Shown: one piece after another, positions 13,561 through 19,500 of the stretch
How positions within the stretch are numbered: the stretch's first letter is position 1
Layout of the letters: each line of letters starts with the position of its first letter
Assembly (NCBI GenBank): GCA_050125095.1
Contig: JASFEA010000044.1
Span: 1-20,502, forward strand
Direction: 5' to 3'
Length of the DNA stretch: 20,502 nucleotides
Source of the DNA: a bacterium
GTDB taxonomy: Bacteria > Arandabacterota > Arandabacteria > Arandabacterales > JALGWA01
Program-made: the position numbers

Positions 13561-16500
13561 TACGTGAGTTGGGTTTAGAACGTCGTGAGACAGTTCGGTC
13601 CTTATCTGTCGTGGGCGTAGGATATTTGAGGGAAGCTGCCCGTAGTACGAGAGGACCCGGGTGGACGAACCTCTGGTGCACCAGTTGTCGCGCCAGCGGC
13701 ACAGCTGGGTAGCTATGTTCGGCAGGGATAAGTGCTGAAGGCATCTAAGTACGAAGCCCCTCCCAAGATTAGATATCCCGTATCATAAGATACCTGAAGG
13801 CTCCTCGGAGACGACGAGGTTGATAGGCTGCAGGTGTAAGTGTGGTGACACACTCAGCCGAGCAGTACTAATAAGCCGTGCGGCTTGACCATTGCAATCA
13901 TTGCAGTGTTACTATTTGATGCTTGTGATCTTTATCCCCTTTTTGCAGTTGTCATGATAAATAGCCTGGTGTGGGGTGGGGATGATACTCAGTTCTTGCG
14001 GATTCGGTCTGTGTTCTGAGCGCCCGAACTCGTACCAGGCGACTAAATAGCCGGAGGGGTCTGGCTACCGAGCGTAGCGAGCGTGCCTGACCCCAAGGCA
14101 TCAGAAGTTCCGGTGGTAATGGCGGAGGGGCCACACCCGTTCCCATTTCGAACACGAAGGTTAAGCCCTCCAGCGCCGATGGTACTGCATGGGAGACTGT
14201 GTGGGAGAGTAGGACGCCACCGGGCTTTTTTATGCCCATCCTGGCGGCCCCCTGTTTGGGCCATGTGTGCAGGAATACCCCGCCCCTGGTGTCAATATAA
14301 AGAGCTTGACACGACTGACAGTCATTGCATAGTATGTCCACGAAACGTGGACATACTAGCTTCTAAATAGACGGGGTGTAAATGGACGAAGCCACACGCA
14401 TACGACGGGAAATGGCAGGGGAGATCTTCGACTACCAGGCCCTGACCTCAGCTCTGTCTGACTACAGCAAGCCCCGTGACAAGATCACGAGGTTGCTTGC
14501 GAGCGGTGCCATCGTCCGGATCAAGAAGGGTCTGTACTGCTTCGGGGAGAGCTTGCGCAAGGGGCCGCTCAGCCGTGAGCAGATTGCCAATCTTATATAT
14601 GGCCCGTCCTATGTCAGCCTTGACTATGCTCTCAGCTATCATGGCATGATTCCCGAGCGGGTCGAGGTGGTTACGTCTGTGACGACGCGCCGCTCCCGCA
14701 CCTTCACGACACCCGTTGGATCCTTCTCTTACCGCACGCTCCAGGAAGCCAGGTATTCGACGGGCGCAATCCTGGAATCCGGGGGCAACACCGCATTTCT
14801 GGTCGCGACTCCGGAGAAGGCGCTCATAGACAGGGTATGGACGGACAGGCGGTTCAGCGGCGGGCGCGTGGCCGATTTCGAGGCGTATCTGCTGGACGAT
14901 CTCAGGATCGATGAGGAAGCGCTCAGCCGGCTCGACGAGTCCCGCCTTCAGTCCATCGCGTTTGCCTACGGTTCGGCCAAGGTCAACAGACTTGTGCGCT
15001 ACCTCAGGGGCCGGGAGGGGGCTTCTCATGCATGAGGCTATACGCAATATGCTGGACCGCTACGAGTGCCGTACGCGGGATGACTACACCAACGCGCTCA
15101 GGGAGATCCTTCAGGATGTCGCCCTGCTCGGCCTCTGGCGCAGCAAGTTCTTCGAGCACGCGGCCTTCTATGGCGGCACCGCCCTCAGGCTCCTCCATGG
15201 ATCGGAAAGGTACTCCGAAGATATCGACTTCTCGCTTCTTCAGGCTGACGACTCATTCTCCCTGGGGACCTATGGAGATGCCCTGCTTCGGGAGATAAGC
15301 AGCTTCGGTTTCGACGTTGATTTCGAGGCTCGAAAGAGTGAGCGAACCGGGGCCATTGAGTCAGCCTTCCTGAAGGCCAGCACATACAGACAACTGGTCG
15401 TAATCGGTGTTACAGAAGAACTGCTGCATGATCTCCATCCTGCTAAGAACCTCAAGATCAAGATCGAAGTCGATACCGATCCGCCAGGCGGCTTCCAAAC
15501 GGAGACGCGATATGTTCTGCAGCCTGTTCCCTTTTCAGTCCGCACATATACGCTGCCCGATCTCTTCGCAGGCAAGCTCCATGCAGTCCTGTGTCGCAGG
15601 TGGAAGACCCGGGTGAAGGGCCGGGACTGGTATGACATGGTCTGGTATGCCGCCAACCATCCGGAGGTCCGTCTTGCGCATCTTGAGGCCAGAATGAGGC
15701 AATCAGGCGACTACACGGATGACGGGCCGCTTGATGCCGAGACCATGAGGGCGATGCTGCACACGGCCCTGGAGGACCTGGATGTCGATGAGGCCCGCCG
15801 TGAGGTTGCACCCTTTATCAGAGATCAGAGAGCTCTGGATCTGTGGTCCATTGAGTTCTTCGCGGAGATTATCGGGCGCATCGATACGATATGAACGGGC
15901 TCGATGTTTGTTCGCTTTATCCCCTTTTTGCAGTTGTCTAACGAAATAGCCTGGTGTGGGGTGGATGTTACTCAGTTCTTGCGGATTCCGAACACGCAGG
16001 TTAAGCCCTCCAGCGCCGATGGTACTGCATGGTGGACTGTATGGGAGAGTAGGACGCCACCGGGCTTTTTTCATGGCTTCGCCTACGGCGGGTCCAATGG
16101 CTCCAGGAAGAGCATAAAGGAATCAATCCCTGTCGGGCCGAACACGATCGGTGTGATTAGGGAATCTGGTTTGTGTCCTTCCATCTCAAGTCGGACAACG
16201 TGGTTATTCCACCACTCCGCAATATGCAGGGTTGCGCTTGTGGTCTTGCCCGTATGCTTTCCGTCGAATACTACCGCTGCACCGCTAGGTCTCGAGAGGA
16301 TACGAGTAACATAGACTGGACGGCCTCCGTACGCGTGAATCCTTCCCGCGAAGCGACTCAGCTTGATGTGACATGAATCGCTTCCGAGTGTAGGGAAGTC
16401 AATCGTAAGTAGGCCCTTGGAGAGTGAGTCCCCGGTCGGGGCTATCCAGGCTGCTCTTTCCTCCACTTCCCAGTGCTGGCAATGTCCAGTGGAGTCATGA

Positions 16501-19500
16501 CAGATGGCACTTCTTTTCCGTAGCGGAGCGATGTAACCAATCGTCGAGCCCCAGTGGACATCCTCCGGTATGCCGTTGGCGGTCAGGAACCTGAAGACCA
16601 TCTCAGTGGTGTCAAGCAAAGCCGGCTCCAGGTAGTCGAAGTGGGTGATTCTGACTACGTAGGGTATATTTTGGGCCTCACACGGGTGCGGATCGACGCA
16701 GCCATCGTCTGTACACGATACCAGTAACGCAACGAGGCCATGCACGAGAAACAGAGCGATCAGGAACCTAGGGGTCGTCGAGTCCCCTCTGCGTCTTCTT
16801 CCACCAGTTGCAGCTGAATCATTCGACCTCAAGGTCATTGAAGTCTCCATTCTCGACAGCCGCGATCCCACTCAGATCATGAGTATACATGTTCCCGCTT
16901 TGGTGGGAGAGTAGGACGCCACCGGGCTTTTTTTGTGCTCTCGAAATAAACGTCTTGACGTTATGACGTTATAATGCTATCATATCGCCATGAATGACCA
17001 GAACAAAAGAGCCACAGTCTACTTCGACCCTGATCTCCACATGGCTCTGCGCCTCAAGGCCGCTGAAACGGACAAGTCAATTTCCGAGTTGGTGAACGAA
17101 GCGGTCAGAAACGCCCTGGCGGAGGACGCCGAGGACCTTGAAGCGTTTGCCGATCGGGTCAAGGAGCCGACGCTTCCTTTCGAGGATCTCGTGAAGGACC
17201 TTAAGCGCCGTGGCAAGATATAGGATCGTCATCAAGGCGTCGGCTGCTAGAGAGATCGAGGAGATCAGTTCCCGCGGGGACCGACGACGCGTAGTAGACC
17301 GGATAGCGGCCCTCGCCGAAGATCCCCGTCCCCGGGGATGTGAGAAGCTCTCTGGCCGGGACATATACCGGATACGCCAAGGCCCCTACCGCATTCTCTA
17401 TTCGCTCCAGGATGAGCAGCTTGTAGTACACGTGGTCAAAGTCGGCCACCGACGGGATGTCTACAAGGGCTGACGCTGTTGAGTGGGGCAAGACCTGGCC
17501 AGGCTCGTCCGCTTGTCTGCGGCACCGATGGTACTCAATGGGAGACCGTGTGGGAGAGTAGGACGCCACCGGGCTTTTTTTATGCCCATCTGCGACTGCC
17601 CCAGAAGCCCAGAACTCTGTGGGCCTTCGGGGGTTGACACAAGTCAGCGGTAGGTATAGACTCATCAAAAAGTCCCTCAGAAAACCGGGGCTGCGGGACG
17701 CTCGGTAGCCCGGGAGCTGTGCTGGCCTACTGCCCGCTCAGGGCGCTTTTGTCAGATACACGGACGGGGGATCAATGGAGCAGCGCGAGTCTTTCGAGAC
17801 CATACTCACTACCAGACTTCACCCCCCTCCCATATCCTCCGATATCGTGGCCAGGCCGCGGCTTCTGAAGACGCTCATGGAGGGGCGCCGAAGGACGATG
17901 ACGCTCATATCGGCTCCTGCCGGGTACGGAAAGAGCGTGCTGGCGAGCCAGTGGCTGGCCGGGGAGAAATGCCCCGGCGCCTGGGTTTCCCTGGATGAGG
18001 ATGACGGCGATCCGCGTACGTTCCTCGCTTACGTTCTGGCGGCCATCCAGAATACATTCCCGGAGGCGGAGCTGAAGACCCAGCCCCTGCTCCAGGCTGC
18101 CGAGATGCCTCCTCCCAAGGTTCTTGCCCGCCACCTGCTGAACGACATGGAGCGGATCGGCGAAGAGTTCATTCTGGTACTGGATGACTACCATCACATC
18201 ACCGAGTCATCGATACACGATCTCATTGTCGAGATGTTGCGCCACCCGTCGCCTAATATGCACCTGGCTGTGCTCACCCGGCGCGACCCGCCTTTCCCGA
18301 TACATGCCTTGCGGGCCGGGGGCGAGATGACCGAGATCGGCGTCCAGCAGCTCCGCTTCACGCCGGCCGAGACACGGGAGTTTCTGGATAGGCTGGTCCG
18401 TATTGATATCGATGAGGATACGGCGGCTCTTCTCGAGGAGAGATTGGAGGGCTGGGCGTCGGGGTTGAGACTGGTAGCCATCACCATGGCGGAGACGGGT
18501 GAATATGACCGCATGATCGAGGTTATCAGGGATGGGTCACACTATTTACAGGAGTACCTGTTGCGGGAAGTGCTTTCCCATGTGTCACGCCCTATTTCCG
18601 ATTACCTCCGGTATACCTCGCTGCTTGACCGTTTCTGCGCGCCTCTCTGCGAGGCGGTACGGCCGACTCGTGAAGATCCGGGGGGGGACCCGGCTGCACT
18701 GAGCGGGCATGACTTCATCGAATGGCTGGAGCGGACCCATCTCTTCGTCATCCCTTTAGACTCCCGACACGAGTGGTTCCGCTATCACCATCTCTTTCAG
18801 CAGCTTCTCAAGAGGGAACTTGAGAAGGCATCGGAGCCCGGCGAGATTGAGGCTGCCCACTTGCGGGCGGGTGCCTGGTTTGCCGAAAACGGCCGCATAG
18901 AGGAAGGCATACGACATTTGCTGGCCGGGGGAGATGTCGACGCCGCGGCCGGGCTGGTTGAGAAGAACCGGATTGCAGTGATCAACACTGACAGCTGGCA
19001 GGTCTTCAGAAAATGGCTTTCGCTGTTTCCCGAGGAGGAAATCCAGAGGCGCATTGGGCTTCTTCTTGCCCGGCTCTGGTTGCACACGGAGTTGTATGAG
19101 GTTCAAGAGCTCCTGGGACTGCTTCGCTCTATTGAGCCGCTGACTTGTGATCTGCCTCCGGGGGATCCCTTGAGAGCTGAGGTTGACCATTTCCGGGGCT
19201 ATGTTGCCTATATCCTCAACGACGGTGCCGAGAGCCTCAAGCACCTAGAGGACGCGCGGCGAGCAATGCCCGATACGCATCACGAGATTAAGGGCCAGAC
19301 CGAAATGCTCTGGGGAATGGCGAGCCAGATGCAGGGGGAAAAAGACAAGGCGGTCGGTGAGCTTAGAGACATAATCCTGAAGGAGAACCCGCATCCGATA
19401 AGAGTCACGCGCCTGCTCGCCGGGCTCTCCTTTATGCACACCATCGCCGGCGAACTGGAGGAAGCAGCTGAGGTGAGTCGGGAGTTCGAGGAAATCTCAG

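Follow-up and report, generated by a model that had tools for sequence, protein, structure and literature searches.

Accessory gene cassettes closed by partial copies of the 5S rRNA 3′ end downstream of an rRNA operon in an Arandabacterales genome

Islands at the 3′ ends of tRNA and tmRNA genes include tandem arrays and integrase-less satellites, such as the tycheposon islands of Prochlorococcus. The arrangement reported here resembles tRNA-gene islands or integron arrays, yet it is built on 5S rRNA, with no recombinase alongside. As in tRNA/tmRNA islands, cargo lies between a stable-RNA gene and an incomplete direct repeat of the 3′ end of that gene, the units stand in tandem, and the accessory or defence cargo varies among strains. 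Unlike those islands, the target is the 5S rRNA gene ending the rRNA (rrn) operon, the arrays examined showed no integrase either within them or next to them, the repeats have no fixed length and reach into the spacer and 23S, and the units are very small (0.6–1.7 kb in the window, the whole 20,502-nt stretch of DNA analyzed). Integrons and CALINs likewise have small cassettes closed at one end by a site-like repeat of variable length, and CALINs are also arrays without an adjacent integrase in which toxin–antitoxin (TA) modules are frequent cargo. Here, in contrast, the tails are plain rrn copies instead of imperfect palindromes, one of 31 nt cannot form an attC-like hairpin, the cassettes have their own promoters and both orientations, and no integron integrase was found, a third Xer-like gene of the genome being without the IntI insertion. 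ISCR1/IS91 elements with the 3′-conserved segments of complex class 1 integrons also hold cargo between a full and a partial direct copy, and an IS91-family element stands beside one copy in two of the genomes studied here. Minimal mobile elements of Neisseria are exchanged by homologous recombination between conserved flanks. In Chlamydia, the rrn-nqrF plasticity zone is a variable region directly downstream of the rrn operon, according to the available portion of one report (PMC10715202). The likeness to both lies in exchange through flanking homology in place of an element-encoded enzyme; however, no 5S-derived repeat is mentioned in that portion (PMC10715202), and here every cassette has its own copy of the flank, so that the homology would travel with the cargo and give multi-cassette arrays.

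The window is the entire contig JASFEA010000044.1 of assembly GCA_050125095.1 (C44 of genome G000; Arandabacterales, JALGWA01), a MAG of 268 contigs that is 91% complete with 3.45% contamination, and it ends within the gene following the array. Rfam located in it a 16S, two tRNAs, a 23S (10821–13892), and one full 5S (14109–14225; RF00001, 96.8 bits, model positions 1–120). The features of the region are as follows.

13837..13892, + strand: last 55 nt of 23S rRNA (Rfam 23S, 10821–13892)
13893..14108, + strand: 23S–5S spacer (between the Rfam 23S and 5S matches)
14109..14234, + strand: complete 5S rRNA gene (14109–14225), rest of the T-run (to 14231), and ATG (Rfam RF00001)
14235..15902, + strand: cassette 1 cargo, from just past the T-run plus ATG boundary (Pfam, PADLOC, promoter scan)
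14306–14335, + strand: promoter-like site, cassette 1 (promoter scan)
14382–15035, + strand: AbiEi antitoxin (Pfam AbiEi_4; PADLOC AbiEi, 218 bits)
15028–15894, + strand: AbiEii toxin (Pfam AbiEii, E 1.4e-34; PADLOC, 349 bits)
15903..16071, + strand: cassette 1 tail, spacer copy plus 5S positions 37–123 plus T-run (repeat families D1, D3, and D4; BLAST; junction alignment)
16072..16902, − strand: cassette 2 cargo, 262-aa PEGA-domain protein (ORF 16083–16871)
16903..16933, + strand: cassette 2 tail, 31 nt, 5S positions 93–123 plus T-run (100% identity, repeat search and BLAST)
16934..17517, + strand: cassette 3 cargo (Pfam, promoter scan)
16955–16983, + strand: promoter-like site, cassette 3 (promoter scan)
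16990–17223, + strand: RHH antitoxin (Pfam Antitox_RHH, E 1.1e-06)
17210–17473, + strand: ParE/RelE toxin (Pfam ParE_toxin, E 4.5e-12)
17518..17590, + strand: cassette 3 tail, 5S positions ~61–123, T-run plus ATGCCCATC (BLAST 17522–17590, 93%; nhmmer 17518–17580)
17634–17662, + strand: promoter-like site before the STAND regulator (promoter scan)
17634..20501, + strand: gene following the array, MalT/LuxR-type STAND regulator (gene from 17775 to the contig end, open; Pfam TPR_MalT, GerE, AAA_16)

The preliminary description had claimed partial 5S copies after the rrn operon, and direct-repeat search and BLAST recovered all three as direct copies of the 5S 3′ end: 15985–16071 (94% identity, 5S positions 37–123), 16903–16933 (31 nt, 100%), and 17522–17590 (93%). 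An exact 27-nt core, GAGAGTAGGACGCCACCGGGCTTTTTT, is present in all four 5S copies with 0 mismatches, compared with 0 matches in 100 shuffles. Since rRNA regions of MAGs are readily misassembled and G000 is fragmented and partly contaminated, the copies could be chimeric joins, or relics of tandem 5S duplication and plain local decay without mobility. This is very improbable: the copies carry differing SNPs and unique flanks, the 31-nt piece is below usual assembly word sizes, and the same joints recur in the independent metagenome contigs L016, L018, and L020. Moreover, although Logan contigs break at repeats, those of two runs span 16003–16932, 16905–17577, and 17552–18003 with 0 other letters, and the composite junction of a second contig of the genome, C60, is also found among them (37-letter insert, run X1). 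The same cargo in different strain contexts, and arrays in several genera, likewise argue against an artefact.

The copies bound three self-promoted cassettes, a structure in which repeat search, Pfam, PADLOC, and the relatives agree with the earlier claim that accessory cassettes are set off by directly repeated 5S 3′ ends. AbiEi and AbiEii of cassette 1 are predicted to form a type IV TA/abortive infection system; the sequence places the AbiEii start at an ATG (15028), in agreement with the peptide MHEAIRNM. An 86-nt copy of the 23S–5S spacer (15903–15988, matching 13918–14005), one of the spacer parts recurring in cassette tails, precedes 5S copy 2, so that tail 1 is a spacer-plus-5S unit with a 139-nt internal deletion; in the close relative L020, the same tail is without this deletion as far as the locus reaches (5S position 59). 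The protein of cassette 2 matched Pfam PEGA (E 7.1e-06, 26.3 bits; cut-off 20.8) and gave no match in PADLOC or NCBIfam searches. Pfam and PADLOC together bear out the cargo assignments of the preliminary description. At the place of tail 2, L016 has a 59-nt piece (5S positions 68–126) behind a different cargo. In cassette 3, the RHH-antitoxin-like gene of the preliminary description is there but does not stand alone, the adjoining ParE/RelE toxin gene (17210–17473) making the two a complete type II TA pair. Its tail is identical in L016 (67/67), and the 9 nt past its T-run are those past the full 5S. The STAND regulator behind the array had no match in two congeners, G001 and G002, and may therefore be accessory as well.

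Of the 16 genomes of the order, 7 (species-level genomes from six genera) gave arrays, and 25 more distant genomes outside it gave none; all the genomes are fragmented MAGs, and contig ends cut off several arrays. The earlier count of seven genomes with at least two 5S matches holds among the 16 of the order. The array is best explained as a strain-variable, accessory set of mostly defence and TA genes that has the rrn operon's 3′ end as its anchor.

The tails are rrn 3′-end copies that differ in length (5S alone, spacer plus 5S, or 23S fragment plus spacer plus 5S), several with internal deletions. They stop at the terminator U-tract wherever the 3′ end is readable: all such 3′-anchored pieces reach profile position 121–123 of 123, except a diverged copy, with which contig G004:C28 ends, that aligned to position 112 only. 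A single 5′ fragment was seen (G002:C30, positions 1–87). The end of the T-run plus ATG is the fixed right boundary common to all copies (boundary alignment, n = 20 copies) and varies by no more than about 3 nt across at least 10 different cargos; the T-run plus ATG core persists in genus g1, with equivalent U-tract ends in other genera. In four lineages, this boundary is the end of the U-tract, which is the natural limit of conserved rrn homology. Tail starts range from inside the 23S to 5S position 93 (23S about −370 in G004:C86, a 67-nt 23S fragment in G009, 23S −55 in C60, spacer +26 and spacer −76, and positions 25 to 93 within the 5S), a spread resembling that of random breakpoints and unlike a fixed att site. 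The clustering of left boundaries at 5S positions 32–41 in genus g1 (5/10 tails) exceeds what random breakpoints would give, and shared descent could explain it. Junction microhomology was noted in the junction alignment (TCCC in C60, TTC in C44 copy 2). If the tails were 5′-truncated cDNA made from the rrn primary transcript at its 3′ end, this would also account for a right end fixed where transcription terminates and for a 5′ extent that varies, with internal deletions resembling template jumps. We consider such an RNA-mediated origin exceedingly improbable: no reverse transcriptase (PF00078) was found in G000 (91% complete), the cassettes include their own promoters, and tail-only insertion fails to explain why tails stay tied to the cargo on their left while cargo varies by strain.

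The main rival is site-specific recombination at the 5S end or terminator, with the recombinase supplied in trans and the 5S tails acting like attC or att sites; we hold it to be unlikely, though a serious contender. The near-constant right boundary with its T-run plus ATG core, and the equivalent ends in other genera, speak for it, and CALINs and tandem tRNA islands have a comparable architecture (cargo then site, multi-cassette arrays, no adjacent integrase). A scan of 70 ORFs from the 14 first loci gave no hit to a recombinase or transposase family besides IS91 in G002 and C60; L019 does carry an rve-type transposase, and L022 a fragment of such a gene. In G000, where no serine recombinase was found, the recombinases are XerC, XerD, and one further Xer-like gene only. 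This third, order-specific tyrosine recombinase (G000:C224:2359–3267) is the candidate enzyme, having Phage_int_SAM_4 and Phage_integrase domains and its best NCBIfam matches, below cut-off, to XerA/integron-integrase models. Within the order, 13/16 genomes have it as a single, syntenic copy, and 25 genomes from outside the order gave no match at E ≤ 1e-40; among the genomes searched it is confined to the order, just as multiple partial 5S pieces are. However, this co-distribution is a single clade-level coincidence; the gene is present in genomes with a single 5S match (G005, G008, G010), was not found in the array-bearing G013, and is without the extra domain of integron integrases, its match splitting at profile positions 181–251. 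Nor do the tails share a length or left end, and the 31-nt tail is without most of any structured site. Inspection of the boundary alignment of 20 copies revealed no dyad symmetry, and the self-promoted cassettes occur in both orientations.

Comparisons with relatives bear out and extend the earlier observation that 5S-end repeats surround other cargo. In 4/4 close-relative comparisons (AbiE in C44 versus L020, RHH-ParE in C44 versus L016, zeta in C60 versus L018, and L007 versus L012 from another genus), the rrn piece to the right of the cargo travels along while the left piece varies, which makes a cassette cargo plus tail. Between L007 and L012, 95.4% homology begins within the 5S piece, with left boundaries at 60 and 37 and different upstream cargo. 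The same cargo thus stands in differing contexts, and cassettes are shuffled between close strains. On C60, the 5S twice reported was confirmed by Rfam (3401–3517 and 4631–4745; pieces 3432–3523 and 4555–4754), and homology to the window begins in the 23S end (C60:3333–3440 versus 13837–13942, 87%). An intact form of this block stands on L018 at 97.6% identity (rrn, 5S, zeta cassette, spacer plus 5S, Fic); the C60 block is better read as what is left of an rrn-linked array than as a unit moved by transposition. Recombination is patchy. Between C44 and L016, the promoter (82%), RHH (91.5%), and ParE (88.8%) differ, but 17474–17774 is identical at 299/301 positions; C60 and L018 are 98–99% identical throughout, save the second 5S at 90.1%. 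Such mosaic identity would fit recombination patches.

The preliminary description linked the cassettes to an IS91-family element, and the adjacency is real: the G002 order of 5S, Fic, partial 5S, and intact IS91 TnpA was upheld by its Pfam-annotated locus, and right-end remnants were located on C60 (two), C99, and C143 as reported, with a short one also on C57. Under IS91 rolling-circle (one-ended) transposition, cassettes would be built and moved together with the adjacent 5S. In C60 and G002, a 5S end is followed about 170 nt farther downstream by tnpA, which reads away from it, so the 5S is on the terIS side, the side mobilized by one-ended transposition under the orientation rule given in PMC13181058. 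In addition, 5′-truncated IS91 remnants are numerous in the order and share a constant right end (...AAATTCCTATGATT), which is the fixed-right, variable-left geometry of the 5S pieces, and a beta-helix gene lies between two right-end remnants in C60. As a mechanism, however, the link found no support, and we judge it improbable. One and the same flank of ~35 nt separates the 5S end from the IS91 left end in C60, G002, and L022, indicating one inherited insertion and not three. Unlike ISCR1/IS91 systems, most arrays, including that of C44, are without IS91, and no IS91 match was found in G004, richest in 5S pieces (six), or G012 (two); G007 and G008 have IS91 with a single 5S match each, and the intact IS91 of G013 (C212) is on another contig than that genome's two 5S matches (C178). 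The cassettes share no IS91-like ori/ter ends, the CTTG/GTTC target is missing from the boundary sequences, and the intact block within an ordinary rrn operon on L018 makes transposition unnecessary to explain C60. We infer that IS91 is a bystander.

We tentatively favor, at somewhat less than even confidence, a course in which illegitimate joints first formed each cassette and homologous recombination between rrn-derived sequences then led to gain, loss, and exchange. A cassette would be born when a microhomology-level joint connects the far end of a gene downstream of the 5S to a point inside the rrn 3′ region, a tandem duplication being a possible example, and its cargo would thereafter lie between direct rrn-derived repeats. 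RecA-type recombination could then loop it out, re-integrate it (Campbell or ends-in type), or replace or convert it, whereas the tails would decay through internal deletion; no dedicated element-encoded recombinase would be necessary. As the best-conserved DNA between strains and genera, rrn DNA could serve as portable homology arms. The constancy of the right-hand piece, the spread starts, U-tract ends, microhomology, mosaic identity, the lack of recombinase hits other than IS91 among the ORFs scanned at the first loci, and the small recombinase set of G000 support this recombination, as does a PRiA4_ORF3 cassette discussed below. Against it, tails of 31–63 nt are poor RecA substrates, so that trimming after integration must be assumed; a sharp right boundary is equally expected from a site-specific cut; and left boundaries cluster in genus g1. 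Of the predicted intermediates (a cargo duplicate, a circle junction, or an empty site in one population), none was seen among the contigs compared. Cassettes do recur across genera: the PRiA4_ORF3 cassette stands directly behind the 5S end, with the same junction, in both G003 and G009, which belong to different genera, and the two versions share 90% DNA and 87% protein identity, compared with 73–77% DNA identity for syntenic neighbors.

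The genome studied (G000) is a MAG of 268 contigs with 91% completeness, and the window, C44, is one entire contig of it (20.5 kb). Housekeeping genes (deo-type genes, a class A PBP and TyrRS), with no recombinase among them, occupy positions 1-8565. The rRNA operon (rrn) that follows is succeeded by three small cassettes, each closed on its right by a partial copy of the rrn 3' end, referred to here as a tail.

Features of the window from the rRNA operon onward
After 8565: rRNA operon with 16S, two tRNAs, 23S (10821-13892) and 5S (14109-14225)
Cassette 1: AbiEi/AbiEii pair (Pfam AbiEi_4 and AbiEii; PADLOC, 218 and 349 bits)
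15985-16071, direct: 5S copy, 5S positions 37-123, 94% identity
Cassette 2, minus strand: PEGA-domain protein, 262 aa (Pfam)
16903-16933, direct: 5S copy of 31 nt, positions 93-123, 100% identity
Cassette 3: RHH antitoxin (16990-17223) and ParE/RelE toxin (17210-17473), a complete type II pair (Pfam)
17522-17590, direct: 5S copy, positions 65-132, 93% identity
Next gene after the array: MalT/LuxR-type regulator, open at the contig end

The direct copies of the 5S 3' end that the preliminary description placed after the operon were recovered by repeat search at those coordinates, and the full 5S and the three partial copies have in common an exact 27-nt core, which had no match in 100 shuffles of the window. 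Directly ahead of the copy at 15985 stands a duplicate of the 23S-5S spacer (15903-15988, resembling 13918-14005 at 86%), so that the two represent a spacer+5S unit with a 139-nt internal deletion. The spacer is unusually long (216 nt), and its stretch GCCTGGTG at 13963-13971, which the tail of cassette 1 has kept as well, is able to base-pair with the 3' strand of helix I of the 5S (14218-14226); this pairing may be a processing helix of the leader-trailer type or may be due to chance. Short upstream stretches can also pair with that strand, not significantly. A function of the tails as terminators was rejected: the scan flagged no tail (3 terminator-like sites, 2.8 expected), and the tails folded no better than shuffles.

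The cassettes are very small and appear to carry their own promoters. The AbiEi gene overlaps the AbiEii nucleotidyltransferase gene by 8 nt, and cassette 1 is accordingly predicted to encode an AbiE type IV toxin-antitoxin/abortive infection system. In cassette 3, the preliminary description had correctly seen an RHH-antitoxin-like gene (Antitox_RHH, 29.2 bits) but had overlooked the downstream ParE/RelE toxin gene (ParE_toxin, 46.8 bits), which overlaps it by 14 nt; judged by sequence, the two would form a ParE/RelE-RHH type II toxin-antitoxin system. Sigma-70-like promoters were predicted at 14306, 16955 and 17634, just past the 5S end or the tails preceding cassettes 1, 3 and the next gene, and the region contains 9 promoter-like sites versus 2.3 ± 1.5 in shuffles. 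The regulator, tried as an empty-site test, had no match in the congeners G001 and G002. The AbiE module (14325-15899, from operator/promoter to the AbiEii stop codon) shows 70-78% DNA identity to loci in MAGs labelled as several different phyla (L060-L064), and homology breaks off at most a few bases from that codon. The module is therefore sharply delimited and travels horizontally. It was rejected as a 5S-carrying mobile unit: an nhmmer search, whose positive control recovered all known 5S pieces, found no 5S-like piece within the sequence retrieved for any of 80 loci encoding AbiEii relatives (at most 78% identical, several phyla). The AbiE-5S association is therefore confined to this genus.

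A pattern scan of metagenome contigs retrieved eight loci of close relatives, 94-99% identical in their shared parts and each differently arranged. Locus L018 has the order rrn, 5S, the zeta-toxin-like cassette of contig C60 of our genome (97.6%), spacer+5S and Fic. Locus L020 has an S41/TPR gene, 5S positions 40-123, the AbiE cassette (95%) and a spacer+5S without the 139-nt deletion, which can be read up to 5S position 59, where the locus ends. Locus L016 has two unrelated ORFs, 5S positions 68-126, the RHH-ParE cassette, a tail as in C44 and the regulator. In these comparisons, the right-hand rrn piece is the same in both contexts and the left-hand piece is different. Likewise, two loci of another genus, L007 and L012, have 95.4% identity from a point within the 5S piece onward, with left boundaries at 60 and 37 and unrelated upstream cargo. 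Since the right piece is constant and the left one variable, a cassette consists of cargo plus a 3' tail, and cassettes sit behind any available 5S end. These loci bear out the earlier statement that relatives have the same 5S-end repeats around different cargo. One genome (G005) has cargo without a tail between the 5S and a conserved GDH flank; thus, some genes after a 5S are not tailed cassettes. Misassembly, to which rRNA regions of MAGs were said to be prone, is a highly improbable source of the joints, because the copies differ by SNPs, their flanks are unique and the same joints recur in independent metagenome contigs and in Logan contigs of two runs, which match without a single difference and also contain the C60 composite junction. 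Logan contigs of 4 runs yielded neither excision nor circle joints, although excision would not be visible in such contigs.

At least two 5S matches were found in 7 of the 16 species genomes of the order Arandabacterales, representing 6 genera; the earlier count was also seven, there among 19 genomes. Partial extra copies were absent from 25 more distant genomes, among which one complete genome has two full 5S genes, and a phylum-wide search added only 2 genomes. Cargo in other genomes includes SoFic, a type IIG restriction-modification enzyme with an Mrr-like gene, a DUF2204 nucleotidyltransferase, a PRiA4_ORF3 protein with SatD and DUF3307, and secreted T9SS-type proteins, so that the cargo leans towards defence and toxin-antitoxin genes. 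The protein of about 600 aa with the C-terminal PRiA4_ORF3 domain (L004, 9730-11592; L010, 1955-3769), whose N-terminal 400 aa had no family match, is 87% identical between two genera. Its absence from the genus of the window and from another genus, both with arrays, led us to reject it as a mobilising enzyme.

The two ends of the tails behave differently. In G001, the 23S end is followed 20 nt later by 5S positions 39-123. Tails start inside the 23S in G004 (C86, whose other contig end is a 23S fragment) and in G009 (a 67-nt 23S piece), and elsewhere in the order in the spacer or at 5S positions 25 to 93. With the leftmost end at 23S -370, the start points cover about 650 nt of the rrn 3' region. 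All 3'-anchored pieces with a readable 3' end reach profile position 121-123 of 123, except for a diverged copy at the contig end of G004:C28, whose alignment stops at position 112. In four lineages, the right boundary coincides with the end of the terminator U-tract; in this genus it reads T6-7 followed by ATG. The sole 5' fragment of a 5S seen lies at a contig end in G002 (C30; L003, 8768-8857, positions 1-87, Rfam 53 bits); unrelated sequence and then a cohesin/T9SS gene follow it.

We tentatively favor, at somewhat less than an even chance, a mechanism in which cassettes are gained, lost and exchanged by homologous recombination on rrn-derived homology. A fragment with rrn-derived sequence at both ends would insert at any 5S through Campbell or ends-in integration and could later loop out, and the first joint of cargo and tail would need one illegitimate event, such as a tandem duplication. 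This mechanism is favored by the spread of tail starts over the rrn 3' region, by microhomology at the joints, by a fixed boundary that is the exact end of conserved rrn sequence, and by arrays with no recombinase inside or adjacent. Mosaic identity also argues for it: C44 and L016 share 82-91% identity over the RHH-ParE module but show 2 differences in the 301 nt after it, tail included, and C60 and L018 are 98-99% identical everywhere save the second 5S (90%). A further argument is the PRiA4_ORF3 cassette, which in two genera lies directly behind the 5S end with an identical junction and has 90% DNA identity versus 73-77% for its syntenic neighbors; with the 87% protein identity, this makes a recent transfer of the gene between the genera likely. 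If homologous recombination is indeed responsible, the best-conserved DNA of the cell can act as portable homology arms, and small defence or toxin-antitoxin modules could pass between strains, even genera, without a dedicated enzyme.

Tails of 31-63 nt are poor RecA substrates, and half of the left ends in this genus cluster at 5S positions 32-41; both facts count against homologous recombination. Its main rival is a site-specific recombination system acting in trans, a reading we consider unlikely. A right boundary sharp to about 3 nt across at least ten cargos, with the ATG persisting, would suit such a system. The report that no integrase lies beside the arrays was upheld, with no Phage_integrase or Resolvase match among 70 + 12 + 16 ORFs around them. 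The only tyrosine recombinases of G000 are XerC, XerD and one conserved Xer-like gene, all on other contigs. Serine recombinases and reverse transcriptases were not found in this genome, and the latter result makes reverse transcription a very improbable route. The third Xer-like gene (G000:C224:2359-3267, L057; orthologues in L140-L143; Phage_int_SAM_4 and Phage_integrase) is single-copy and syntenic, with a large TPR protein before it and oxidative-stress genes after it, and is 68-89% identical in 13 of the 16 genomes of the order. At E<=1e-40, no match to it turned up in 25 genomes from elsewhere, and its distribution thus matches the clade with arrays. However, this match is one clade-level coincidence, members of the order that have just one 5S match also possess the gene, and it lacks the extra domain of integron integrases: against TIGR02249 it scores 181 bits (cut-off, 265), and the match breaks at that domain. 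It is doubtful, though conceivable, that the rrn terminator of the order serves as the docking site of an integron-like gene-capture platform, in which the 5S-derived tails would be the recombination sites and this order-specific tyrosine recombinase, domesticated and encoded elsewhere, would insert small defence cassettes with their own promoters where the 5S U-tract ends, and excise them there. Such a platform would be a cassette system of a new class, with an rRNA gene end as both attI and attC. Site-specific recombination in general, if true, would mean a new integron-like capture system.

An IS91-family element had been linked to the cassettes through C60, which carries a second cluster of 5S pieces. 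There, the series runs from 55 nt of the 23S end and some 50 nt of spacer, joined to the 5S at position 32, through the zeta-toxin-like kinase cassette and 76 nt of spacer with a full divergent 5S to an IS91 fragment.

IS91-family matches in C60 (L001)
4923-5522
9797-10245
12348-13181

The element and its adjacency to the 5S are real. An intact tnpA is present in G002, and the remnants noted on C60, C99 and C143 were confirmed and joined by a fragment on C57; at the right end, five copies agree, with a TTCCTAT motif. Across the order, copies are mostly 5'-truncated remnants with an exact common right end (...AAATTCCTATGATT). A beta-helix gene in C60 is flanked by two 5'-truncated remnants, and a distant IS91-like gene directly follows a tyrosine recombinase gene in G007:C178 and G009:C34. 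The 5S lies on the terIS side of the element, described as the side mobilised by one-ended transposition (PMC13181058). A causal role is nevertheless very improbable. A 35-nt flank between the U-tract and the IS91 left end is common to C60, G002 and L022, the only places with IS91 beside 5S pieces, so the adjacency is one inherited insertion, and no Y2 HUH transposase with an oriIS end bounds the cassettes in the manner of a one-ended transposition unit. No IS91 occurs in C44; G004 (6 pieces) and G012 (2 pieces) have no IS91 match, whereas G007 and G008 have IS91 but a single 5S match. Cassette ends are unlike IS ends: their boundaries are a T-run and ATG followed by varied sequence, without the target tetranucleotide CTTG/GTTC described next to the oriIS-side junction (PMC13181058). 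The intact form of the C60 block stands within an ordinary rrn operon on L018. Given the shared flank, the distribution, the cassette ends and this intact form, we infer that C60 is more simply read as a degraded rrn-linked array than as a product of IS91. An empty-site test of C60 through its Omp85 neighbor failed, since the match in G001 was a paralogue closer to that on C15, on a contig ending inside the gene.

Stable-RNA genes are classic landing sites of mobile DNA; in the textbook cases, the gene is that of a tRNA or tmRNA and the element encodes an integrase; comparison systems include tRNA islands, tycheposons, CALINs and minimal mobile elements. Integrative islands of the tRNA type have an integrase in or beside the element, attL/attR derived from the 3' end of the RNA gene and an identity block of defined extent. 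The arrays resemble them in the full 5S followed by direct 3'-end copies, as in attL/attR-type repeats, but differ in having no integrase inside or beside them and no fixed identity block, the left ends ranging from 23S -370 to 5S position 93. The attC sites of integrons and CALINs are imperfect inverted repeats that fold into hairpins with conserved R and L boxes, whereas the tails are collinear 5S copies: when four partial copies and the full 5S were folded, z-scores versus shuffles ranged from -1.4 to +0.1, and the 31-nt tail has no partner strand. Nor was an integron integrase with the IntI-specific extra domain, as in a complete integron, found here. What is of a known kind is accessory cargo at a stable-RNA gene, set between direct repeats that derive from the target; new here are the 5S/rrn tails, the very small self-promoted cassettes and the lack of an adjacent recombinase. 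The arrangement is real, recurrent and apparently undescribed: a full-text literature search brought up no account of cassette arrays with 5S rRNA ends as boundaries, the nearest sources concerning an rrn-adjacent plasticity zone in Chlamydia (PMC10715202) and IS91 biology (PMC13181058).

In practice, partial 5S copies fragment the assembly of MAGs in this phylum, and annotation can mistake them for additional 5S genes. A weak 5S-like stretch at G000:C15:16293-16362 (nhmmer E, 0.018; positions 48-117), roughly 2 kb past an Omp85 paralogue on its downstream side, could be a relic of an old copy or due to chance. In G009, the rrn-linked 5S (C25; L010:385-543; Rfam 81.5 bits) measures 159 nt because some 43 nt are inserted between positions 80 and 82; this could be an expansion segment of the 5S or the sign of a copy in decay.
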